The position numbers and the translations under genes were made by a program. A model generated the notes under the pieces. That model made no database searches. It was not told where the DNA came from and saw only the letters and a program-made list of their open reading frames with translations. This document shows, piece after piece, positions 6,056 to 44,236 of a DNA stretch of 49,700 bases (position 1 is its first letter; each line of letters starts with the position of its first letter). Location of the stretch: assembly GCF_003334255.1 (NCBI RefSeq), contig NZ_QOWU01000038.1. The stretch is one strand, 5' to 3'. The stretch is from Escherichia coli (GTDB lineage Bacteria; Pseudomonadota; Gammaproteobacteria; Enterobacterales; Enterobacteriaceae).

Positions 6056-6781
6056 TTAATGCAGGATTTTCGCGAGGAAGTCTTTTGCGCGGTCCGATTT
6101 CGGATCATCGAAGAAAGCGTCTTTCGGCGAGTCTTCGACAATTTTACCCTCGTCCATAAAGATCACCCGATTCGCCACTTTACGGGCAAAGCCCATTTCG
6201 TGGGTCACCACCATCATGGTCATTCCTTCGTTCGCCAGTTCCACCATCACGTCCAGTACTTCGTTGATCATCTCCGGATCCAGCGCCGATGTCGGTTCGT
6301 CAAACAGCATCGCAATAGGATCCATACACAACGCGCGAGCGATTGCCACACGCTGCTGCTGACCGCCGGAAAGCTGCGCCGGAAACTTATTGGCGTGAGC
6401 AGAAAGCCCGACACGCTCCAGCAGTTTCAGGGCTTTTTCACGAGCCGGCGCTTTATCGCGTTTAAGCACTTTCACCTGCGCCAGGGTCAGGTTTTCGATA
6501 ATCGACAGATGAGGGAACAGCTCGAAATGCTGGAATACCATCCCGACGCGGGAACGCAGCTTTGCCAGATCGGTTTTCTTGTCGTTAACCACGATACCAT
6601 CGACGGTGATTTCACCTTGCTGCACCGGTTCGAGGCCGTTGACGGTTTTAATCAGCGTTGATTTGCCGGAACCAGACGGGCCGCAAACCACCACCACTTC
6701 GCCTTTTTTCACTTCGGTTGAGCAGTCGGTCAGCACCTGAAAGTGACCATGCCATTTTGAAACATTTTTCAGGGTAATCAT
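6056..6781 (-). CDS. gltL: Glutamate/aspartate ABC transporter ATP-binding subunit
   Basis: Walker [13 protein letters not shown] signature LSGGQQQR, Walker [12 protein letters not shown]. Confidence 0.9.
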
Positions 6782-7455
6782 TATGCTGTCCTTCTTTTCA
6801 AGTAGCTGACCAACAACGACGCGCTAAGACTAATAACGAAATAAACAAATCCGGCAAACAGGATCATCTCAACCTGCGTACCATCACGCTCACCAATGGT
6901 TGAGGCGGTACGGAAGAAATCGGCCAGGGATAACACATACACCAGTGAGGTATCCTGGAACAGTACGATGCCCTGAGTGAGCAGCAGCGGCACCATCGCG
7001 CGGAACGCCTGCGGCAGAATAATCAGTTTCATCGACTGCCAGTGAGTCATTCCCAACGCCAGCGCGGCGCTCGATTGACCACGAGAAATACTTTGAATAC
7101 CAGCACGGATAATCTCTGAATAGTAGGCCGCTTCAAACATCGAAAACGCCACCATCGCCGAAATTAAACGGATATCATTTTTTGGCGATAATCCCAGCAC
7201 GTTTTGCAGAAAACCCGGCACGATCAGGTAAAACCACAGCAAAACCATAACTAAAGGAATCGAGCGGAATACGTTAACGTAGGCTTTGGCAAACCACGCC
7301 ACGGGCGCAAAGCTGGATAAACGCATCACCGCCAGCATCGTGCCCCACAAAATACCAATCACTACCGCCGTGACGGTGATTTTCAGGGTGATCACCAGCC
7401 CGTCGAGCAGATATGGCAGGGAAGGGACAATGGAACTCCAGTCAAACTCGTACAT
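6781..7455 (-). CDS. gltK: Glutamate/aspartate ABC transporter permease
   Basis: 224-aa polytopic membrane protein; stop overlaps gltL start (TAATG). Confidence 0.9.
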
Positions 7456-8195
7456 TATTTGCCCCCCATGTTGCCAGGCAGGCGAACTTTACGTTCAACC
7501 AGCGTCATCACCAGCATGATAAAAGCGTTAATCAACACATACGCCAGCGTAATGGCGGTAAACGACTCCCAGGCATGGGCTGAGTAATCGAGCAATTTAC
7601 CCGCCTGCGCCGCCATATCCACCAGACCGATAGTCGAGGCGATGGCGGAGTTTTTCACCAGGTTCATCATCTCTGAGGTCATCGGCGGGACGATAACGCG
7701 ATAAGCATTAGGCAGCAGTACGTATCGATAAGCCTGCGGTAGCGTCAGGCCCATCGCCAGCGCGGCATTTTTTTGCCCTCGCGGCAGCGACTGAATCGCG
7801 GCGCGTACCTGTTCGCAAACACGGGCGGCGGTAAACAGCCCCAGGCAGAGCATGGATGAAAGGAAAAACTGAATATTGGGATCCAGCTCGGCCTTAAACC
7901 ACATGCCGATTTTCTCCGGCAGCAGCTCCGGGATCACCAGATACCAGGTAAAGAATTGCACAATCAACGGCACGTTGCGGAACAGTTCGACATACAACGT
8001 ACCCAGACCAGAGAGAAAACGGTTTGGAACGGTACGTAAAATGCCGAAAAATGAACCGACGAGGAAAGCGATAATCCAGGCGCAGATCGACAAAGCGATC
8101 GTCACCTGAAAACCACTCCAGATCCAACCAAGATAGGTGGTGTTGCCGAACGGGGCTTGTTGTAAAAAAATACCCCAGTTCCAGTCTATAGACAT
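7455..8195 (-). CDS. gltJ: Glutamate/aspartate ABC transporter permease
   Basis: 246-aa membrane protein; stop overlaps gltK start (TAATG); GGAG 8 nt upstream of ATG 8195. Confidence 0.9.
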
Positions 8196-8202
8196 AAATC
8201 TA

Positions 8203-8242
8203 CTCCAGAAAAAAGAGGGTAGCAGCGTTAACTGCTACCCTC
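8203..8242 (-). terminator. Intrinsic terminator/attenuator hairpin between gltI and gltJ
   Basis: Perfect 11-bp stem gagggtagcag/ctgctaccctc (8215-8225 / 8232-8242), loop cgttaa, followed on the minus strand by TTTTTT (8214-8209) that runs directly into the gltJ ribosome-binding site. Confidence 0.7.
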
Positions 8243-8370
8243 GAAGATTGTTACCCAGCGTATTGCGGTTTTCAGGCCCGATGGGGAACGACCATCAGGC
8301 GTATAGTCTGTCCGTGCTACGTAACAATCGAGAGGGCTGGAATTTCCGCCCCTGGTTCTTGTAATTAGTT
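8209..8370 (-). ncRNA. sroC: gltI 3'UTR-derived small RNA (SroC-like)
   Basis: Positional: the gltI-gltJ spacer ending at the hairpin terminator is where SroC is described in E. coli; the 5' end is not determinable from sequence alone. Confidence 0.45.
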
Positions 8371-9273
8371 CAGTGCCTTGTCATTCGGTTCTTTGAACAG
8401 TGCTTTCATTTCGTCTGACAGTTCGAAATTCATGTTCAGGTTTTTCGGCGGAATTGGATTTTTGAACCACTTATCAAACCATTTTTCCGCTTCACCGGAG
8501 GTCTGCACCTGAGCGATGGTGTCATCCATCAGCTTTTTGAACTGCGGATCATCTTTACGCAACATACAACCGTAGGCCTCCTGAGACTGCGGCTTGCCGA
8601 CGATTTCCCAGTTGTCTGGTTTCTTCGCTTTCGCACGTTCACCGGCCAGCAGAGCGTCATCCATCATAAAGGCAACGGCACGACCGCTTTCCAGGGTGCG
8701 GAAAGAGTCACCGTGATCTTTGGCGCTGATGATGCGCATATTCATTTTTTGCTCTTCATTCAGTTTGTTGAGCAAAACTTCAGAGGTAGTGCCGGAAGTG
8801 ACGACTACGGCTTTGTCTTTCAGGTTGGCAAAATCTTTGATATCGCCACCCTTTTTGGTCAACAGGCGCGTACCGACCACGAAAATAGTGTCAGAGAAAG
8901 CCGCCTGTTTTTGGCGTTCGACGTTGTTGGTGGTAGAACCACATTCAAAATCGAAAGTGCCGTTTTGCAGCAGTGGAATACGGTTTTGTGAGGTAATCGG
9001 AATCAGTTTTACCTGCAAGTCCGGTTTGTTGAGTTTCTTTTTCACTGCTTCAACAATGGCGTTGGAGTAATCCTGCGAGTAACCCACCACTTTTTGCTGA
9101 TTGTCGTAATAAGAGAAAGGCACTGAAGATTCACGGTGACCGACGACAATCACACCGTTTTTGGCGATTTTGTCCAGAGTACTGCCCGCTGCCGGGGCGG
9201 CGTCATCTGCCTGTGCCAGTCCTGCGGAAAGCGCCAGGGCGAGGATTGCTGTGGCAGGTTTACGTAATTGCAT
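8365..9273 (-). CDS. gltI: Periplasmic glutamate/aspartate-binding protein
   Basis: Start refined to ATG 9273 (MQLRKPATAILALALSAGLAQA signal peptide) with AAGGAG upstream; the track ORF extends 25 codons further. Confidence 0.9.
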   Translation of the reverse strand: MQLRKPATAILALALSAGLAQADDAAPAAGSTLDKIAKNGVIVVGHRESSVPFSYYDNQQKVVGYSQDYSNAIVEAVKKKLNKPDLQVKLIPITSQNRIPLLQNGTFDFECGSTTNNVERQKQAAFSDTIFVVGTRLLTKKGGDIKDFANLKDKAVVVTSGTTSEVLLNKLNEEQKMNMRIISAKDHGDSFRTLESGRAVAFMMDDALLAGERAKAKKPDNWEIVGKPQSQEAYGCMLRKDDPQFKKLMDDTIAQVQTSGEAEKWFDKWFKNPIPPKNLNMNFELSDEMKALFKEPNDKALN

Positions 9274-35768: not shown

Positions 35769-36419
35769 TTATTGCGTGAATGTTTCTTTCATTTGATACT
35801 GCATTTCCCAGAGTTCAGTAAGCGAAATAACTTTTCTTGTTCTTGCTTCTTCACTTTGTACCCATAAGAAAGGGTAGAACGTGAAGGCTTCCGTTGCCGA
35901 TAATTTTATTACGTCTTCTCGCCATTGCTGCCATCGTACATTTTCATAGAAGGTATCTAAATCACCGGATAATGCCCACTGAAGAAACTCAGAATATCCA
36001 ACTTCCAGACTTTCCCAATTCAGCGTATCTGGCGCAAAATAATAAACGCAGCCAGTATCTTCCCCAAGATCGCCACCATTAAGAGCAAAAATTCCCCCTG
36101 CGACATCGTCAGCGATGGGTAAAGCCCGCACGCCTGCGAATTCAGGGCGTTGTGTCCAACTTACTGGATCTCGTGGCAACCGGGGGTGACCAGATCCTGC
36201 TATGCGTAACCAACCATTATCAATCAGCAGACCTCCGGAGCCATAGACAAGCGCACCCATCGGTGATTTTGTTGTCACCTCTAATTGATAAAGTGCGGTT
36301 TCGGCTAAATCTTTATTAACCGGTAAGAGTTCGGTATGGTTTGTGGCGTCTTTTAACCAGTTCTGGATTATTGGCCAGGCTGAATCTTCAGTATTTACTA
36401 ACTGATTCATTTCACGCAT
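35769..36419 (-). CDS. ybfG: Conserved hypothetical protein
   Basis: 216 aa from ATG 36419 (MREMNQLVN..) with AAGGAG upstream; the track ORF adds 36 codons. The symbol is from position only. Confidence 0.5.
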   Translation of the reverse strand: MREMNQLVNTEDSAWPIIQNWLKDATNHTELLPVNKDLAETALYQLEVTTKSPMGALVYGSGGLLIDNGWLRIAGSGHPRLPRDPVSWTQRPEFAGVRALPIADDVAGGIFALNGGDLGEDTGCVYYFAPDTLNWESLEVGYSEFLQWALSGDLDTFYENVRWQQWREDVIKLSATEAFTFYPFLWVQSEEARTRKVISLTELWEMQYQMKETFTQ

Positions 36420-36542
36420 CGCTACTTGCTCCTTGTGTGCTACGGTGTCATTTATGATGAGGAATTGTATGGAACATTTTTTAAATATTAAGTTCCTTAT
36501 ATTTGAATAAAAAATGACTTTATCCATACATTGCCACTTTTT

Positions 36543-36681
36543 TCAAAGCATAAACCGATACCCAATACCGGTTTCAGTAATAAAATGGCGAGGCCGGGCC
36601 GGATCCTGTTCCAGTTTTTGTCGCAGATGCCCCATATAATTACGCAAATAGTTGCTGTGTTCGATCGCGTTTAGACCCTAC
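36543..36681 (-). pseudogene. ybfI: Fragment of a response-regulator gene: paralogous copy of the kdpE 3' end (last ~45 codons plus stop)
   Basis: About 90% nucleotide identity by eye with 40878-41016; it translates in frame to ..NAIEHSNYLRNYMGHLRQKLEQDPARPRHFITETGIGYRFML*, against the KdpE C-terminus ..NAVEHSHYLRIYMGHLRQKLEQDPARPRHFITETGIGYRFML*. No start codon or N-terminal receiver domain. Confidence 0.8.
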
Positions 36682-36727
36682 ATCTGCCGGATGCGGCATA
36701 AATAACGAACTATTTGCCAACAAACAG

Positions 36728-36756
36728 AAAGGGCGATCATTCAATCGCCCTTTTTT
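36728..36756. terminator. Hairpin terminator downstream of potE
   Basis: aaa-gggcgat-cattca-atcgccc-tttttt; REP-like gccggatgcggc just upstream. Confidence 0.55.
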
Positions 36757-36767
36757 ACTTTGTTTTA

Positions 36768-38087
36768 TTAACCGTGTTTATTTTTCAGTTCAAAGCGTGG
36801 TGATACCAGACCATACAGTGTCCAACCAAGGAAGGTCACGATGGAACCGTACAGCATGGCTTCTTCCCCGGATGAGTACAGCGCATAAAAGCTATACATC
36901 GCGCCAACAAAAGCAACAAAGTTTGCAACTTTCGCTTTTGAGGGGGGCACATTAGCTACCTTCTGAATAATGACTAATGCCGCCATTGACAGAATATACG
37001 GAATGATATTGGTCACCACGGCCAGGTTAACCAGCACGTTGAACTGACTGTTTAGCGACGGGCTAATGGTCATCAGTGCCAATCCACTCTGAATAATCAC
37101 AATGGTCAACATTCCCTGCACCGGTGCATCCACTTTGGTTACACGGGAGAAAATTTTAGGGAAGTAGCCTTCATCAGATGAAGATTTAAACACCTGGGCA
37201 ATGGTGAACTGCCAGCCAAGTAGCGAACCGCAGCAGGACATCACCATCAGCGCCATAATGACTTTACCCACTTCCGGCGTGAACATCTGCGCGAAGGCCA
37301 GACCAAATGGTGCCGTTGAATTTGCCAGCTCCATATTTGGCACAATCCCGGCAATCACGTTGGTGGAGACGATATAAATCACCGCCGCACCTAACGTACC
37401 GCCGAGTACCGCGATTGGCACATTACGTTCCGGGTTTTCCACTACATCAGTATTCGCACACGCAGACTCCAGACCAAGAAAAGCCCACAGCGTCATAGCG
37501 ATGGAAGAACCTACCGCACTGAAGAACGGTGCATGATGCGGATTCCAGGAATCAACGTACAGCGTCGGGCTAAACCAGAACCAGCCAATAATGCACAGAC
37601 CGACGACCGGAATAATGACCCCCCACACGGTAATGCTACTGATTTGCCCGGTAATGCGCGCACCACCAAAGTTAGCCACGGTACAAATCCACAGCACCCC
37701 GATGGTCGCAAGACCAATCTGCACTGGCGACAAACTCGCGCCGAGCAGTTCGGTGCCGTAACCAACCGCCGAAATAGCAATCGCGACGTTAGCAATCAGC
37801 AGTGAGACGCCGTAGGTATAGTTCGCCATAAAGTTACCGGATTTACCGAAAGCATACTCGGCATAACCGCCCATACCGCCTGATTTACGGCTGAACATAC
37901 CGCATTTTGCGAATGCCCATGCCAGTGCCATTGAGCCTACGGCTGTCACCAGCCAGGAGATAATTGAGATTGTCCCGACTTCGGCAAGCTTTGTCGGCAG
38001 CATGATGATACCGGAGCCCATCATGTTGACCATCGTCAGTATGGTTAACTGAACGACGCCCATTTTGTTCGATTTAGCCTGACTCAT
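36768..38087 (-). CDS. potE: Putrescine-ornithine antiporter (APC family)
   Basis: 439-aa polytopic membrane protein; start overlaps the speF stop. Confidence 0.9.
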   Translation of the reverse strand: MSQAKSNKMGVVQLTILTMVNMMGSGIIMLPTKLAEVGTISIISWLVTAVGSMALAWAFAKCGMFSRKSGGMGGYAEYAFGKSGNFMANYTYGVSLLIANVAIAISAVGYGTELLGASLSPVQIGLATIGVLWICTVANFGGARITGQISSITVWGVIIPVVGLCIIGWFWFSPTLYVDSWNPHHAPFFSAVGSSIAMTLWAFLGLESACANTDVVENPERNVPIAVLGGTLGAAVIYIVSTNVIAGIVPNMELANSTAPFGLAFAQMFTPEVGKVIMALMVMSCCGSLLGWQFTIAQVFKSSSDEGYFPKIFSRVTKVDAPVQGMLTIVIIQSGLALMTISPSLNSQFNVLVNLAVVTNIIPYILSMAALVIIQKVANVPPSKAKVANFVAFVGAMYSFYALYSSGEEAMLYGSIVTFLGWTLYGLVSPRFELKNKHG

Positions 38088-40282
38088 AATTTTTCCCCTT
38101 TCAACAGGGTGCTTTGCGCATCACGAGGCTTGATGACATAGCACCAAACTTGCTTACGACCATCATGTTCTTCGATATAGACACCCTGCAGCTCCGGTGC
38201 AAAACCTGGCAGCAGGTTGATCCCTTCTTCCAGAGCGCTGAAGTAACGCAGAACAGCACCACCCCAGATTTCACCCGGAACAACACACAGCACACCCGGA
38301 GGATAAGGAAGCGCACCTTCGGCAGCGATACGGCCTTCTGCATCCGGCAGACGAACCAGTTCCACTTCACCGCGTAAATAGGCGTAGTTGGCTTCTTGCG
38401 GATTCATGCTGACGCGTGGGAAGTGCTCCTTACGGAACATCTCTTTTTGCAGTTGTTTCACGTTGTGGCGGGCATACAAATCATGCATTTCCTGACACAA
38501 CTGACGCAGGGTATAACCGGCGTAGCGCTCTTCATGCTGTTTGTAGATGGAAGGTAGCACTTCTGCTAATGGCGCGTCGGACTCAAGCAGTTTTTCGAAG
38601 CGTACCAGCAGGGCAACAAGTTGCTGAAGTTTGGCCATATCTTCTGCCGGAGTCAGCAGGAAGAGGATGGAGTTAAGATCGCATTTTTCCGGCACTACGC
38701 CATTTTCGCGCAGGAAGTTAGCAAGAATCGTCGCGGGTACACCGAACGCTTCATATTCGCCGTTACGTGCATCAATACCTGGGGTTGTCAGCAACAGTTT
38801 GCATGGATCGACAAAGTATTGATTCTCTGCATAGCCTTCAAAAGAATGCCAGTGTTCCCCTGGTACAAACTGGAAGAAGCGCAGATCAACCGCAATTTGC
38901 GCTGTTTCATACGACTGCCAGGGTTTACCATCCACCAGTTCAGGTACGAACGGACGAATATGCTGACAGTTATCGAGGATCAGTTTGCGGGCATTAATGC
39001 CATTTACCACACAATCCATCCACATATTACGACCGCTGACACCTTCATGCATTTTGGCGTTGATATCCAGTGCGGCAAACAGCGGATAGAACGGGCTGGT
39101 GGAGGCGTGCATCATAAAGGCGTTGTTCATGCGTTTGTGCGGTACATAACGCTGTTGCCCTTTGATGTGGCTGTCTTTTTTATGAATTTGTGAAGTCTGA
39201 GAAAAACCAGCCTGTTGTTTATGCACAGATTGCGTAACCAGAATACCCGGATCGTTCTCATTAAGATCCAGCAACAGCGGCGAACAGTCCGCCATCATCG
39301 GAATAAACTGTTCATAGCCGACCCATGCTGAGTCAAACAGGATGTAGTCACACAGATGACCAATTTTATCCACCACTTGGCGGGCGTTATAAATCGTACC
39401 GTCGTAGGTGCCTAACTGAATCACAGCGAGGCGGAAAGGACGAGCCTCTTTTGCCCGCTGCGGTGCGACTTCCGCGATCAGCTCACGCAGGTAACTTTCT
39501 TCAAAACAGTGCGCATCAATGCCACCGATAAAGCCATACGGGTTACGTGCCGTTTCCAGATAAACCGGTGTTGCACCAGCCTGTAGCAACGCTCCGTGGT
39601 GGTTAGATTTGTGGTTATTGCGATCAAACAGCACCAGATCACCCGGTGTTAGCAGGGCGTTTAAAACCACTTTGTTAGAAGATGAAGTGCCATTTAAAAC
39701 GAAGTAGGTTTTATCGGCATTAAACACTTTTGCCGCATGTTGCTGTGCAATGCATGGCGCGCCTTCGTGAATCAGCAGATCGCCCATCGCTACGTCGGCG
39801 TTGCACAAGTCGGCACGGAACAGCGCCTCACCAAAGTATTCCACAAACTGATTCCCCGCCGGATGGCGACGGAAAAATTCGCCGCCCTGATGACCAGGGC
39901 AATCAAACGCGCTGTTACCTTGATTGACATAATCGACCAGTGCGCGGAAGAAAGGTGGGCGCAGTTGAGTTTCATAATGGCTGGCAGCGGTTTCTAACTG
40001 GCGACCATAAAATTCTCGTCGCGATTCGCAATTCTCAAAGACACCCGAAATACGGGGCAAATACTCTGCGGGTACACGTTCTTGATTTTCAGTAGCAATA
40101 AATACCGGGATGCCATAACCCGTGGCATCGATTTCATCGAGTTTTCCGCATGTAACATCGTTGAGCGATAAAACTATTGCCGCCACATCGATATTACGAC
40201 TTTCATTAATGTAGATACATTCTCGCTGCGTGGTAAAACAGTCCGGGCAAGAATCACTAACCGCAATTTTTAATTTTGACAT
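38084..40282 (-). CDS. speF: Inducible ornithine decarboxylase (PLP-dependent)
   Basis: 732 aa; fold-type I PLP decarboxylase with N-terminal wing domain. Confidence 0.9.
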   Translation of the reverse strand: MSKLKIAVSDSCPDCFTTQRECIYINESRNIDVAAIVLSLNDVTCGKLDEIDATGYGIPVFIATENQERVPAEYLPRISGVFENCESRREFYGRQLETAASHYETQLRPPFFRALVDYVNQGNSAFDCPGHQGGEFFRRHPAGNQFVEYFGEALFRADLCNADVAMGDLLIHEGAPCIAQQHAAKVFNADKTYFVLNGTSSSNKVVLNALLTPGDLVLFDRNNHKSNHHGALLQAGATPVYLETARNPYGFIGGIDAHCFEESYLRELIAEVAPQRAKEARPFRLAVIQLGTYDGTIYNARQVVDKIGHLCDYILFDSAWVGYEQFIPMMADCSPLLLDLNENDPGILVTQSVHKQQAGFSQTSQIHKKDSHIKGQQRYVPHKRMNNAFMMHASTSPFYPLFAALDINAKMHEGVSGRNMWMDCVVNGINARKLILDNCQHIRPFVPELVDGKPWQSYETAQIAVDLRFFQFVPGEHWHSFEGYAENQYFVDPCKLLLTTPGIDARNGEYEAFGVPATILANFLRENGVVPEKCDLNSILFLLTPAEDMAKLQQLVALLVRFEKLLESDAPLAEVLPSIYKQHEERYAGYTLRQLCQEMHDLYARHNVKQLQKEMFRKEHFPRVSMNPQEANYAYLRGEVELVRLPDAEGRIAAEGALPYPPGVLCVVPGEIWGGAVLRYFSALEEGINLLPGFAPELQGVYIEEHDGRKQVWCYVIKPRDAQSTLLKGEKL

Positions 40283-40539
40283 TTTTCATCTCTTTATTTT
40301 AGGTAATAGCAGGTCCTCAATTTCTCGAATGAGAAATCGATCGTGCCGGAAAAAAGCAAAGTTACCCCGCTGATAAATAAATCAGGTAGATTGCTTTTTT
40401 CAGAATGCAGAAACCCTTACCAGTCAGGTGGCTGATAATACAAGGGTTAACAGAGAATGAGCACTGCGGAATACAGGCATATGCCTGTAATACAGAGAGT
40501 CAGGAAGACCTGTACGCTGAAGTGCCCTTAGTCGGTAGA

Positions 40540-40644
40540 CTAACGGGCATTGAAGAAGTGAAAGTCGAAGCTATTGCGATGAGCAAACTTCATAATATGA
40601 GTTGTCCGCCTTATATGGGGCATAGTGCGGCTGTTATTTTCCAT
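40540..40644 (-). CDS. speFL: Ornithine-sensing leader peptide of the speF operon
   Basis: 34-codon ORF MENNSRTMPHIRRTTHIMKFAHRNSFDFHFFNAR*, not in the ORF track, in the AT-rich leader about 260 nt upstream of speF. Confidence 0.8.
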   Translation of the reverse strand: MENNSRTMPHIRRTTHIMKFAHRNSFDFHFFNAR

Positions 40645-40812
40645 TTAATTTACCTTTCCTGATGTGAATGAAGGTGAAGATATTCTATCCAGGAAATACG
40701 GTTGAACTGTGAAGGTGATCAATAAAAAATGATCAATCTTAATTTATTTAATGATGAGCTTTTTACTCAGTAATATAAAATATTGAATTGTTATTTTTGT
40801 GTGTTGTTTAAG

Positions 40813-40842
40813 ATAAAAAGCCGTATTTATTATTACGGCTTT
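40813..40842 (-). terminator. Intrinsic terminator after kdpE
   Basis: Minus strand: aaagccgta-ataataaa-tacggct-ttttatctt. Confidence 0.65.
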
Positions 40843-40877
40843 AATTAATAAAAGGCAGGCTGTATTAAAATTAATAT

Positions 40878-41555
40878 TCAAAGCATAAACCGATAGCCAA
40901 TACCGGTTTCAGTAATGAAATGGCGTGGGCGGGCGGGATCCTGTTCCAGTTTTTGTCGCAGATGTCCCATATAAATACGCAAATAGTGACTGTGTTCGAC
41001 CGCGTTTGGCCCCCACACCTGGTTAAGGAGCTGGCGCTGGGTGAGTACTTTTCCGGCATTGTTGAGCAGCACCGCCAGCAGGCGGAACTCAATTGGTGTG
41101 AGATGCACCTCTTCCTCACCCCGGTGAATCACGCGGGCGGCTAAATCGACGGTAACATCGGAAAATTTTACCAGCGGATCGGGCGCGGTGGTGGCAGAGT
41201 GGCGGCGTAATGCGACGCGCAGACGGGCCTGCAATTCGCCAATGCCAAACGGCTTACTCAGATAATCATCCGCTCCGGCATCCAGCGCGGCGATTTTGTC
41301 GCTCTCTTCGCTGCGTGCGGAAAGCACAATCACCGGCACCGCGCTCCACTGGCGCAGGTCGCGGATAAACTCAATCCCATCACCATCGGGCAGGCCGAGA
41401 TCGAGAATAATCAAATCTGGCTTACGGGTTGCCGCTTCCAGCAAGCCGCGTTGCAGCGTTTCGGCCTCAAAGACGCGCATCCCGTCGCCCTCCAGCGCCG
41501 TGCGCAGAAAGCGACGAATAGCCTGTTCATCTTCAACAATCAGAACGTTTGTCAC
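40878..41555 (-). CDS. kdpE: OmpR-family response regulator of the kdp operon
   Basis: 225 aa; receiver domain (LIILDLGLPDGDG) plus winged-helix; GTG start 41555-41553 overlaps the kdpD stop (ATGTGA). Confidence 0.9.
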   Translation of the reverse strand: MTNVLIVEDEQAIRRFLRTALEGDGMRVFEAETLQRGLLEAATRKPDLIILDLGLPDGDGIEFIRDLRQWSAVPVIVLSARSEESDKIAALDAGADDYLSKPFGIGELQARLRVALRRHSATTAPDPLVKFSDVTVDLAARVIHRGEEEVHLTPIEFRLLAVLLNNAGKVLTQRQLLNQVWGPNAVEHSHYLRIYMGHLRQKLEQDPARPRHFITETGIGYRFML

Positions 41556-44236
41556 ATATCCTCATGAAATTCTTCAAGTTCAGGGGCAGTTTGCTGGGGA
41601 AGTGTAACACGAAAACAGGCACCACCTTCCGGTCGGTTGAACGCGGTAATAGTGCCCCCGTGTACATCCACTATCGCCCGACAAATTGCCAGTCCAAGCC
41701 CTACCCCCGGTACTGCCGACTCTTTATTCCCGCGAGCAAACTTATCAAATATCGTCTGCTCCTGGCCTGGCGGAAGACCGGGGCCGTTATCCCAGACATC
41801 CAGTTGTAGATTTTCGCCCTCAACGTGGGCATCGATACCAATTTCGGCCTGCGCACCCGCATATTTCACCGCGTTCTCCAGCAGATTAATCAGCACCCGT
41901 TCAAAGAGTGGCCCGTCAACGTGGATTAAGGTCAGCGGTTCTGGCAGAGAAAGATTGATGGGCGACGATAAACCCGGTTCCAGCATTTGCAGCGCGCTGC
42001 CGACTACTTCTTCCAGCGTTAACCACTCTTTCTTCAAATTAAAGCCGCCGGACTGAATTCGCGCCATATCCAGTAGATTATTCACCAGTCGGGTAGTGTT
42101 CAGCACATGCTGACGGATCTCGCTGGCCTGGCGGGCGTGGGGTGATCCTTCGCTTGCCAGATCGAGCGTTAAGATTTCTGCCTGACCAAACAGCACCGTA
42201 AGCGGCGTGCGTAAATCATGCGAAAGCGCCGCCAGCAGGGCGTTGCGGATCTGTTCACGTTCGCTTGCCATCCGCGCCTGTTCTTCGCTGGCGGTTAGCG
42301 TCAGCCGCTCAAGGGCATTGGCGACTAACAGCGTAAACGTCTCCAGCAGGCGCTGCTGTTCCGGGATCATCAACTGGCGCAGATTCCCCGGCTCCACCAC
42401 CACCAGCCCGTAGGTTTTCTCGCCGCTTTTTAGCGGCAAAATCTGGTACGGTACACCGGGTAACGTGTCGGTGCCCGCGCCCGCAGGCAGGCCTTTATCA
42501 AAACTCCACTGCGCGATGGCATCGTCCCACGGCGTCATTCCTTGCGGATGTGTTAACGGCTGCAATTTACCGTTGTCATCGGGCAACAACACCTGACTGC
42601 GGGCATGAAACGTGGAGGCAATAAATTGTTCGCTGGTGGCAGCGATATCCTGCGGACTGCGGCCCACCGCCAGAGCTTTCGACATTTCATATAAGTGCCG
42701 TGTGCGTTGCTCGCGGTAACGGGCTACCCGCGCCTGATAACGCACGCCAGCAGTAAGGTTCCCGATCACCAGCCCGACGGTTAACATCACCGCGAAGGTC
42801 AGCAGATATTGCACATCAGAGACGGCGAGCGTGCCGCGTGGGGCGATAAAAAAGAGATCGAAACTCACTACATTAATGACGGTGGCAACCACTGAAGGCC
42901 AGCGTCCATAAAATAGCGCCACCACCACCACGCCAAGCAGATACAGCATCACCAGGTTGGCGGCATCAAACGCCATCAGCCACTGCATGGCAATTAAGGT
43001 GATAACGGCGCATAACGCGGCGGCAACCACGCATCCCTGAATTTGTACACGCCACTTGTCTTTAAAAGAGCGGTTATCCGGCGCGTTGTTAATCGTGCGG
43101 GCGGGTGGTTCATCAAGCGCGACCAGCACCTGATCGAGATCGGGGGCGATGCGCGCCAGTCGGTCAGCAAACGTTTCCCGACGCCACCAGCGGCGCGAGG
43201 CCGGGCGACCGAGAATAATCTTGCCGAGATTATGTTCACGGGCATAACGCACTACCGCTTTCTCTTCCGCTGGATCAGAAAGTGTTGCCGTCTCCGCGCC
43301 CAGTTCCTGCGCCAGACGTAAGGCGCTGAGAATTGCCCGACGTTTTTTTTCCGGTAAGCGGTGCAGGGCAGGGGTTTCAACATACACCGCGTGCCAGACG
43401 CTACCCAGCCGTGACTCCAGCCGCGCCGCTGCGCGGACCAGTTTTTCGCTGCCGGTGTTATGGCCGATGCATAAAAGGATCGCGTCGCGCGTGTGCCACA
43501 CTTTCTCTTCGCCAGGATGCCCCCGCCAGGCGCGCATTTGCTCATCAACGCGATCGGCAGTACGGCGCAGTGCCAGTTCGCGCAGGGCGATCAGATTACC
43601 TTTGCGGAAAAAATGTTCAATGGCGCGCTCCGCCTGCCCGGCAATATAGACTTTGCCTTCTTTCAGCCGCTGGCGCAGATCGTCCGGGGGCAAGTCCACC
43701 AGCACCACGTCGTCGGCGGCATCGAAAAAAGGATCGGGCACGGTTTCCCGTACCTGAATTCCGGTGACGCCGCTGACCACATCATTCAGACTTTCCAGAT
43801 GCTGAACGTTGACGGTAGTGAAAACATCAATGCCAGCTTCCAGCAGTTCTTCGATATCCTGCCAGCGTTTGGGATGACGGGAACCTGGCGCATTACTGTG
43901 CGCCAGTTCGTCCATTAAGATCAGCGCCGGGCGGCGGGCGAGGGCGGCATCGAGATCAAACTCGCTGATATGCCGCCCACGGTACGCCTGGCGTTTTAAC
44001 GGCAGAACAGCCAGCCCTTCCAGCATGGCGGCGGTATCTTTTCGCCCGTGGGTTTCTACCACGCCAACCACAATATCCAGCCCTTGCGCCCGCAGTCGCT
44101 GGGCTTCTGCCAGCATCGCCCAGGTCTTCCCGACGCCTGCACAGGCACCGAAGAAAACTTTCAGCTTCCCCCGATGCGGCGCGGCAGTTTGTTCCAGCAG
44201 ACGATCGGGGTCGGGACGTAAGGGTTCGTTATTCAT
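41552..44236 (-). CDS. kdpD: Sensor histidine kinase KdpD
   Basis: Start refined to ATG 44236 ([16 protein letters not shown].., 894 aa); N-terminal KdpD domain with Walker [10 protein letters not shown], four TM helices, H-box LSHDLRTPL, HATPase_c. Confidence 0.9.

Follow-up and report, generated by a model that had tools for sequence, protein, structure and literature searches.

The minus-strand ORF at 40644..40540 of the window, the 49,700-nucleotide stretch of Escherichia coli DNA that was analysed, is almost certainly speFL, the leader gene of the speF–potE operon of K-12-type E. coli, working by the published mechanism. Nothing contradicts its identification as speFL. The gene is already well studied, and the ORF itself is without novelty: the structure of SpeFL has been solved by cryo-EM, the peptide has its own Pfam family, RefSeq and EcoCyc both annotate the gene, and it is covered by reviews of arrest peptides and of Rho, among them one on Rho from 2025, so that the finding adds no new biology. 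It serves rather as a calibration point. An earlier note, made from the raw sequence, had read a functional 34-codon gene that falls under the usual ORF cut-off, and only the position that it gave for the rut site was wrong.

The leader ORF and its operon

The ORF opens with ATG at 40644..40642, runs for 34 codons and closes with TAG at 40542..40540. The earlier note had quoted a translation without naming a strand; the ORF listing places the frame on the minus strand and returns exactly the quoted peptide, MENNSRTMPHIRRTTHIMKFAHRNSFDFHFFNAR. Since 95 ORFs of at least 25 amino acids overlap positions 36000..43000, the length of this one carries no weight alone. In a comparison with the published sequence all 34 of 34 residues agreed with the chain named SpeFL in 6TBV and 6TC3 of the PDB (E = 7.6e-20), in agreement with the proposed match to the ornithine-sensing arrest peptide. 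Pfam family PF10940, "Leader peptide SpeFL", matches residues 8–33 (E = 4.6e-5, 23.6 bits), and RefSeq annotates the same ORF in MG1655 as 'leader peptide SpeFL' (WP_211180488.1). A scan of the 34-residue peptide against NCBIfam returned no family at E ≤ 0.001, a result that is uninformative for a 34-mer; Pfam does match.

The neighbouring genes all lie on the minus strand, as speFL does, in the order kdpD, kdpE, speFL, a 257-nt gap, speF and potE. The regulated gene, speF (38084..40282, minus strand), encodes the inducible ornithine decarboxylase and scores 1435 bits against NCBIfam TIGR04301 (cut-off 1310). The second gene of the operon, potE (36768..38087, minus strand), encodes the putrescine–ornithine antiporter, scores 857 bits against NF007938 (cut-off 409) and overlaps the speF stop codon by 4 nt. 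The suggestion that the peptide controls speF–potE is therefore matched by what lies downstream. From the speFL stop codon to the speF ATG at 40282 there are 257 nt (40539..40283); this is the long untranslated gap that had been pointed out, and the primary paper reports the same length for it (Herrero del Valle et al., bioRxiv 10.1101/604074). The 595-nt kdpE–speF intergenic region is 100% identical to that of E. coli K-12 MG1655. The leader is also AT-rich, as described, with a GC content of 35.8% for the intergenic region and 26% upstream of speFL, against 51.1% for the whole window.

Conservation within E. coli and across species

In a blastn search the speFL segment was found in 5044 of 5426 complete E. 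coli genomes and the first kilobase of speF in 5045. An apparent confinement of the leader to 1709 of the 5426 genomes in a megablast search was rejected as an artefact of the identity limit of that program. Two alleles of the segment are present. Approximately 1700 genomes match the window at 99% identity or more, and in approximately 3340 the identity is only 80–90%. The divergent allele encodes MENNNRLMPHIRRTTHIMKFAHRNSFDFHFFNAR, and the two are about 83% identical in DNA. Within the ORF they differ at 15 nucleotides, ten of which fall in codons 8–34 and are without exception silent third-position transitions; when ten transitions were placed at random, the peptide was left unchanged in none of 100,000 trials. 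The codons ATA-AGG-CGG-ACA and the TAG stop consist of the same nucleotides in both alleles.

For the comparison across species, approximately 100,000 species-representative genomes were scanned for exact matches to the back-translated motif FDFHFFNA. The scan gave 71 loci, 59 of enteric type, and 58 of these could be analysed in full. In the enteric loci FDFHFFNA is part of a short ORF, with the stop two codons after the motif and HIRRXXH in register, and in all 53 loci that cover the start of speF this gene begins 197–381 nt downstream of speFL. The other 12 matches, in Methanobrevibacter, Treponema, Bacteroidetes and other unrelated organisms, have none of the features of the enteric loci and serve as controls.

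Among the 56 distinct enteric speFL sequences HIRRTTH (residues 10–16), which lies outside the search pattern, is invariant, while position 7 takes nine different residues. Phe20 is present in 53 of the 56 and Arg34 in 54; these two positions are independent of the search pattern, unlike residues 26–33, which are forced by it. Codon 12 is a rare arginine codon in all 56 sequences and codon 13 in 51, and the stop codon is TAG in 44 and TAA in 12. The earlier note had held that its reading would fail if the ORF were not conserved in orthologous speF leaders; conservation over the 58 enteric species is very strong. These comparisons independently confirm, on evolutionary grounds, that selection acts on the peptide sequence, on the rarity of codons 12 and 13 and on the coupling to speF.

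Sensor, effector and rare codons

The residues with published roles are at their published positions in the window peptide, namely Pro9, His10, Ile11, Arg12, Arg13, His16, Phe20, Arg23, Asn24, Phe26, Phe28, Phe30, Phe31, Asn32, Ala33 and Arg34, and the stop codon is UAG, as in SpeFL. The sensor domain, HIRRTTH, is encoded by codons 10–16 (40597..40617, minus strand) and corresponds to the published HIRRXXH ornithine-recognition loop, preceded by Pro9. Contacts to ornithine are made by Pro9, Arg12 and Arg13 (Herrero del Valle et al., bioRxiv 10.1101/604074). The description of an Arg-rich sensor thus captures the two arginines, and is refined to a loop of residues 10–16 acting with Pro9. The effector or stalling domain, FAHRNSFDFHFFNAR, is encoded by codons 20–34 (40543..40587, minus strand) and carries Phe20, Phe26, Phe28, Phe30 and Phe31; its role is taken from the cryo-EM paper, in which the effector is the Phe-rich stretch from Phe20 to Arg34 and Phe26 is strictly conserved (bioRxiv 10.1101/604074). 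The FHFFNAR tail to which stalling had been ascribed is part of this effector and not the whole of it.

Codons 11–14, ATA-AGG-CGG-ACA (40603..40614, minus strand), form a run of rare codons that includes those for Arg12 and Arg13. Their shares of the respective synonymous families in the long ORFs of the window are 5% (ATA), 2% (AGG), 12% (CGG) and 10% (ACA), and the consecutive rare arginine codons that the earlier note had proposed to look for are found at codons 12 and 13. The published role of the rare codons in SpeFL is to slow ribosomes, so that the rut site stays exposed (bioRxiv 10.1101/604074).

The proposed Rho-binding segment

The proposed core of the Rho-binding (rut) site, which is also the proposed anti-Shine–Dalgarno strand, is a CU-rich segment, CUUUCACUUCUUC, within codons 27–31 (40552..40564, minus strand). 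A 13-nt stretch without G occupies 40565..40553, offset by one base from CUUUCACUUCUUC at 40564..40552, and the CU-rich site lies 10–24 nt before the speFL stop. Between about 40640 and 40430 there is more C than G, reaching the 92nd–96th percentile of the window background; for the rut region the bias is modest, at the 86th–96th percentile. The rut-like, C-rich and G-poor stretch to be looked for in 40283–40540 is thus only partly borne out, in the proximal part of that interval, whereas in the distal 147 nt (40429..40283) the fractions of C and G are similar, 0.18 and 0.20.

A rut site in the distal gap was rejected, given this composition and the location of the Rho site inside the ORF in the E. 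coli and the Salmonella paper alike. In the E. coli work rut is drawn overlapping speFL (Herrero del Valle et al., bioRxiv 10.1101/604074). In Salmonella a 12-nt CU-rich segment (mRNA nt 112–124), to which CUUUCACUUCUUC corresponds, lies before the stop codon, opposite the speF ribosome-binding site, and termination by Rho yields an RNA of 157 nt with its end approximately 21 nt beyond the stop (Ben-Zvi et al., PMC6386406). The position of the Rho site in the ORF, together with this Salmonella end point, places attenuation elsewhere than in the long gap. The segment lies at the 3′ end of the ORF, so the interval proposed for rut was mostly the wrong place. Rho-dependent attenuation itself, as the earlier note had supposed for speF–potE, is supported by published work: bicyclomycin leads to constitutive expression from speFL with the 257-nt gap, exactly the arrangement of the window (Herrero del Valle et al., bioRxiv 10.1101/604074), and northern blots and fusions point to Rho in Salmonella (PMC6386406). 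The G-free CU-rich segment and the modest excess of C over G in the window are supporting sequence features.

Leader RNA structures and expression signals

A hairpin around the stop codon, GCCCGUUAGUC-UACC-GACUAAGGGC (40524..40548, minus strand), has a predicted stability of −15.2 kcal/mol and coincides with the published RNA polymerase pause hairpin. A helix at this position is predicted in 47 of 51 species, and 83.6% of alignment cells pair, against at most 45% in slid controls. Covariation in the cross-species alignment was no better than in shuffles, which is attributed to the 5′ arm being fixed by coding. We regard this hairpin as conserved pairing potential, predicted by folding, rather than as a proven structure. 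A weak match to the pause consensus GGN8YG (40515..40526, minus strand) would let a prematurely ended transcript finish at 40516, which is 24 nt beyond the stop codon. It occurs in only 13 of 51 species and was discarded as a conserved pause element. Further 3′ of the stop, the centroid fold contains two small hairpins, CAGG-UCUU-CCUG and then ACAGGCAUAUGCCUGU (40472..40512, minus strand). CAGGUCUUCCUG recurs in many genera, and by analogy the two hairpins are likely to be equivalent to the 'DS' hairpin region of Salmonella.

The minimum free-energy fold of the full leader pairs the CU-rich segment in speFL codons 27–31 with the Shine–Dalgarno (SD) and AUG region of speF (40294..40278, minus strand), a long-range helix that would sequester the ribosome-binding site. 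A helix with this function in Salmonella has been proven by compensatory mutations (Ben-Zvi et al., PMC6386406), and the predicted helix is, on the basis of the modelled fold, its E. coli counterpart. Duplexes between ORF and ribosome-binding site in 53 species have a mean energy of −12.4 kcal/mol, compared with −8.6 kcal/mol when the ORF segment is shuffled, and are better than the control in 41 of the 53. The K-12 allele is among the weakest. Its isolated duplex, at −13.1 kcal/mol, is no better than shuffles, 20% of which do as well (p ≈ 0.2).

Signals for expression of speFL itself were read from the sequence. A Shine–Dalgarno-like element, AGGAAAGG, lies 8–12 nt upstream of the ATG (40653..40660, minus strand); AGGA has been named as the SD of Salmonella orf34, the AUG of which is placed at +32 by the transcription start site (Ben-Zvi et al., PMC6386406). 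By analogy with Salmonella, TAGAAT at 40687..40682 is a candidate −10 box, with a putative start at about 40675, 31 nt before the ATG (40675..40687, minus strand). The sequence TGGATAGAATA, in the candidate promoter region, is identical in both E. coli alleles. A scan with the sigma-70 consensus over 40200..40950 found no full promoter. An intrinsic-terminator-like hairpin with a T-run just after kdpE (40817..40842, minus strand) shows where the kdp operon upstream ends, and speFL therefore needs a promoter of its own. An Rfam search of 36000..44000 at a permissive threshold found nothing in the leader. Matches elsewhere, a sub-threshold MicX-like hit downstream of potE and a chance BcKCsr2 hit inside speF, were set aside.

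Two alleles and a distal hairpin

The divergence between the two E. coli alleles extends over about 1.8 kb (approximately 41100..39300 of the window) and takes in the 3′ end of kdpE, the whole leader and the first 950 nt or so of speF. Identity between the alleles is 68–87% within this patch and 97–100% in its flanks, and the PotE protein is identical. The K-12 type, which is that of the window, is carried by about a third of E. coli genomes and differs from the majority allele at about 17% of bases. With approximately 90% identity to E. albertii the majority allele behaves as vertical descent would predict, and the K-12 allele is at most 80–83% identical to any sampled species. Judged from these identities, the K-12 allele appears to have been imported long ago from a lineage outside the sample. 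The gap between speFL and speF is 310 nt in the majority allele and 257 nt in the K-12 allele, through 51 extra nucleotides and small indels elsewhere. We also note that in several strains the leader is broken up by an IS1 element, and that two MAG or isolate records with non-enteric names carry enteric speFL–speF DNA. All E. coli experiments have used the K-12 leader, a minority allele that appears to have been imported, and this may matter when their results are generalized.

A second, terminator-like hairpin lies in the distal part of the leader (40351..40400, minus strand). It is built in two tiers, with an A-tract and GCAA, CUGAU, a loop, AUCAG, then UUGC and a U-tract, followed by CCGG. 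Across 52 species it has 26 double-sided cells, compared with 6.1 ± 2.1 in shuffles (none of 500 reached this value), and its score is 0.165, compared with at most 0.084 when slid. This covariation was obtained by naming the structure explicitly; RNAalifold on the gappy 52-species alignment gave no structure. No Rfam family covers 40400..40351, and four supplementary files of the Term-seq study of Adams et al. contain no 3′ end in the leader, the only speF entry being antisense, at 720082. The element is probably the equivalent of one of the 'ring' hairpins near the Salmonella RNase G site (nt 388–400). It is conceivable, though we think it unlikely, that the distal hairpin is a second checkpoint, either a factor-independent attenuator or a stability or processing element, and that the allele patch gives E. 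coli lineages different ornithine or arginine set-points for putrescine synthesis.

Mechanism and alternative explanations

Ornithine-dependent arrest and dependence on Rho have been shown by others on the identical sequence; what our data add are sequence prerequisites and indications of evolutionary constraint. SpeFL toeprints depend on ornithine, which is also visible in its bound state in the cryo-EM map (Herrero del Valle et al., bioRxiv 10.1101/604074); codon-swap experiments on speFL have also been published. As published for the identical sequence, an N-terminal sensor hairpin (HIRRXXH with Pro9, Arg12 and Arg13) and 23S rRNA trap one molecule of L-ornithine in the exit tunnel during translation. 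Completion of the C-terminal effector leads to its compaction, and RF1 is blocked at UAG with the ribosome stalled and Arg34 in the P-site (bioRxiv 10.1101/604074).

Mapped onto the window, the mechanism would proceed as follows. RNA polymerase would pause at the hairpin that encloses the speFL stop. When ornithine is low, the ribosome would terminate and leave, uncovering the CU-rich rut in the last speFL codons, and Rho would then end transcription about 20–25 nt after the stop, just past the hairpin; the rare codons 11–14 would keep trailing ribosomes off rut. When ornithine is high, stalled and queued ribosomes would cover rut and transcription would continue into speF–potE. The CU-rich segment may also pair with the speF ribosome-binding site, and ribosome occupancy would thus free speF translation as well.

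The leader might instead be mainly a sensor of arginine supply, in which scarcity of charged tRNA-Arg pauses ribosomes at the rare arginine codons and so alters leader folding (the DS hairpin versus a ring-like structure) and decay by RNase G, with ornithine capture secondary. We consider this decidedly improbable. It draws on the finding of Ben-Zvi et al. (PMC6386406) that arginine destabilizes Salmonella speF mRNA by way of the two arginine codons and RNase G, and on the conservation of the rare codons and the presence in the window of the downstream hairpins and of the covarying leader hairpin. A device that works by codon pausing, however, needs no particular peptide, yet the whole peptide is conserved: HIRRTTH and FDFHFFNA are fixed and the allelic changes in codons 8–34 are silent. 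Moreover, the published substitutions R12K/R13K, or alanine at His10, Ile11, His16 or the Phe residues, abolish ornithine-dependent arrest, and ornithine itself is seen in the cryo-EM map. The K-12 leader also lacks 51 nt of the majority allele, and the Salmonella ring structure may not transfer to it directly. Reasoning by analogy, it is plausible that control by arginine and RNase G forms an extra layer on the ornithine arrest and not a replacement for it.

That the frame is open merely by chance, as may happen in AT-rich intergenic DNA, and is untranslated, with regulation residing purely in the RNA, has a probability close to nil. Short ORFs are abundant in the 7 kb of 36000..43000 and no NCBIfam model matches the peptide, but a chance frame would have to accommodate purely silent substitutions in codons 8–34, peptide motifs that are invariant over 58 species, an SD at the right spacing, a Pfam family and a PDB structure of the nascent peptide. 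It is in any case refuted already by the substitution pattern and by the published orf34–lacZ translation fusions in Salmonella, where start-codon mutants also speak against it (PMC6386406). A further alternative is a function in trans, in which the released peptide of 34 residues would act on a target such as SpeF or PotE, and not in cis as a nascent chain. Some small leader-encoded proteins do have functions in trans. This general precedent is all that speaks for the proposal, and we find it very hard to credit. The chain has been seen folded in the exit tunnel, touching rRNA and uL22 (bioRxiv 10.1101/604074), and a mechanism in cis agrees with the conserved link between stop codon, hairpin and CU-rich site.

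Comparison with related systems

The SpeFL of E. coli K-12 (bioRxiv 10.1101/604074; PDB 6TBV and 6TC3; PF10940, formerly DUF2618) is the same gene and shows no difference: the 34-residue sequence, the UAG stop, the AGG-CGG pair at codons 12–13 and the 257-nt gap are common to both. The orf34 of Salmonella Typhimurium (Ben-Zvi et al., 2019, PMC6386406) is likewise a 34-codon upstream ORF before speF with consecutive AGG-CGG codons. On the predictions for the window, further points of agreement are the hairpin around the stop, the CU-rich Rho site opposite the speF ribosome-binding site, termination by Rho some 20 nt beyond the stop and an AUG approximately 31 nt from the start site. Salmonella subspecies representatives encode MENNNRFMPHIRRTTHIMMFAHRNSFDFHFFNAR, which differs from the SpeFL of the window at positions 5, 7 and 19. 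In Salmonella about 379 nt separate the ORF from speF, compared with 257 nt here, and UGA has been reported as the stop of Typhimurium orf34 (PMC6386406), compared with UAG. Only in Salmonella has control by arginine and RNase G been demonstrated.

TnaC, the leader peptide of tnaCAB in E. coli, offers a parallel that is drawn by the SpeFL paper itself (bioRxiv 10.1101/604074). There too a leader peptide senses a free amino acid in the ribosome and blocks release at its own stop codon, and the stalled ribosome hides rut so that Rho cannot terminate transcription before the structural genes; of this arrangement it is the geometry that is seen in the window. The two peptides nevertheless have no sequence similarity, TnaC is outside PF10940 and its ligand is tryptophan and not ornithine. 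The TnaC stop is UGA, read by RF2 (PMC8450073), whereas SpeFL ends in a UAG that RF1 recognizes. The ornithine pocket of SpeFL has been described as a new site in the tunnel (bioRxiv 10.1101/604074).

MdtU, the upstream ORF of mdtJI, differs from SpeFL in peptide, ligand and operon. It resembles SpeFL in being an upstream ORF of the polyamine pathway, responsive in this case to spermidine, the translation of which controls premature termination by Rho, and the authors of the MdtU work compare it explicitly to speFL.

Two alleles at the speFL locus

Among complete E. coli genomes, the patch surrounding the ornithine-sensing leader ORF speFL (window 40644..40540, minus strand) occurs as two sharply distinct alleles. 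It runs from about 41100 to about 39300 and covers the 3' end of kdpE, the leader, speFL itself and the first ~950 nt of speF. The comparison was made with positions 6700–8600 of the E. coli locus L075 and with L002 and L003, two loci from genomes carrying the majority allele. The K-12 type, which is the version in the window and in MG1655, is represented by approximately 1700 complete genomes that match the window at no less than 99% identity; the majority allele is found in about 3340 complete genomes that are only 80–90% identical to it. The flanks of the patch are 97–100% identical between genomes of the two alleles, which encode the same PotE protein. The gap between speFL and speF is 51 nt longer in the majority allele than in the K-12 type.

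The majority allele and Escherichia albertii share about 90% identity. Since the K-12 allele is only 80–83% identical to any sampled species, it has, on these sequence comparisons, the appearance of an old import.

Annotation, disruption and provenance of speFL–speF copies

In majority-allele genomes RefSeq annotates a 44-residue 'hypothetical protein' (L002, 1121–1255; L003, 1102–1236), which is read in a different frame from speFL, overlaps its start and is likely to be a spurious call in an AT-rich promoter region.

Several E. coli carry IS1 within the kdpE–speF leader region (NZ_AP022177.1, NZ_CP101005.1, NZ_CP020835.1, NZ_CP060083.1 and others), and in NZ_AP023235.1 the element lies inside speF. 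Such insertions presumably inactivate or rewire the control of speF–potE in the strains that carry them.

The scan of species representatives for the FDFHFFNA motif of speFL returned two loci that may be decaying copies of speFL–speF. In Kluyvera genomosp. 3 (L051) codon 5 is a stop, which disrupts the N-terminus of speFL, and the best match to SpeF begins at residue 130; in Enterobacter sp. EA-1 (L061) the best SpeF match begins at residue 303, 1170 nt downstream. The same scan found enteric speFL–speF DNA under two non-enteric names, namely a 2225 nt MAG contig labelled 'Collinsella sp.' (L028), which matches the K-12 allele with 100% identity across 1401 nt, and 'Chryseobacterium sp. 18061' (L053). 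The presence of enteric sequence suggests that these assemblies are contaminated or mislabelled.

The region downstream of potE

Directly downstream of potE (36580..36765, minus strand) Rfam gives a sub-threshold match to the Vibrio sRNA MicX, with 34.1 bits and E = 1e-4, where the gathering score is 75. The match arises from a strong GC hairpin and U-run, which looks like the potE terminator, and is most likely not a true MicX homologue. A 145 nt stretch at 36542..36686 is 89% identical to the kdpE 3' end (L075 6789–6933) and appears to be the counterpart of the winged-helix pseudogene fragment, lacking its N-terminus, that is annotated downstream of potE in MG1655 RefSeq. The potE–pgm interval of the K-12-type window holds about 1.6 kb that is absent from FDAARGOS_433.

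A conserved hairpin upstream of speF

Approximately 70–120 nt upstream of speF (40351..40400, minus strand) lies a two-tier hairpin of terminator-like appearance, arranged as AAAAAAGCAA, CUGAU-loop-AUCAG and UUGCUUUUUU, then CCGG. Most of the 52 enteric species compared retain it, its covariation is significant, and Rfam has no entry for it. The hairpin is probably part of the 'ring-like structure' published for Salmonella, near the RNase G site.
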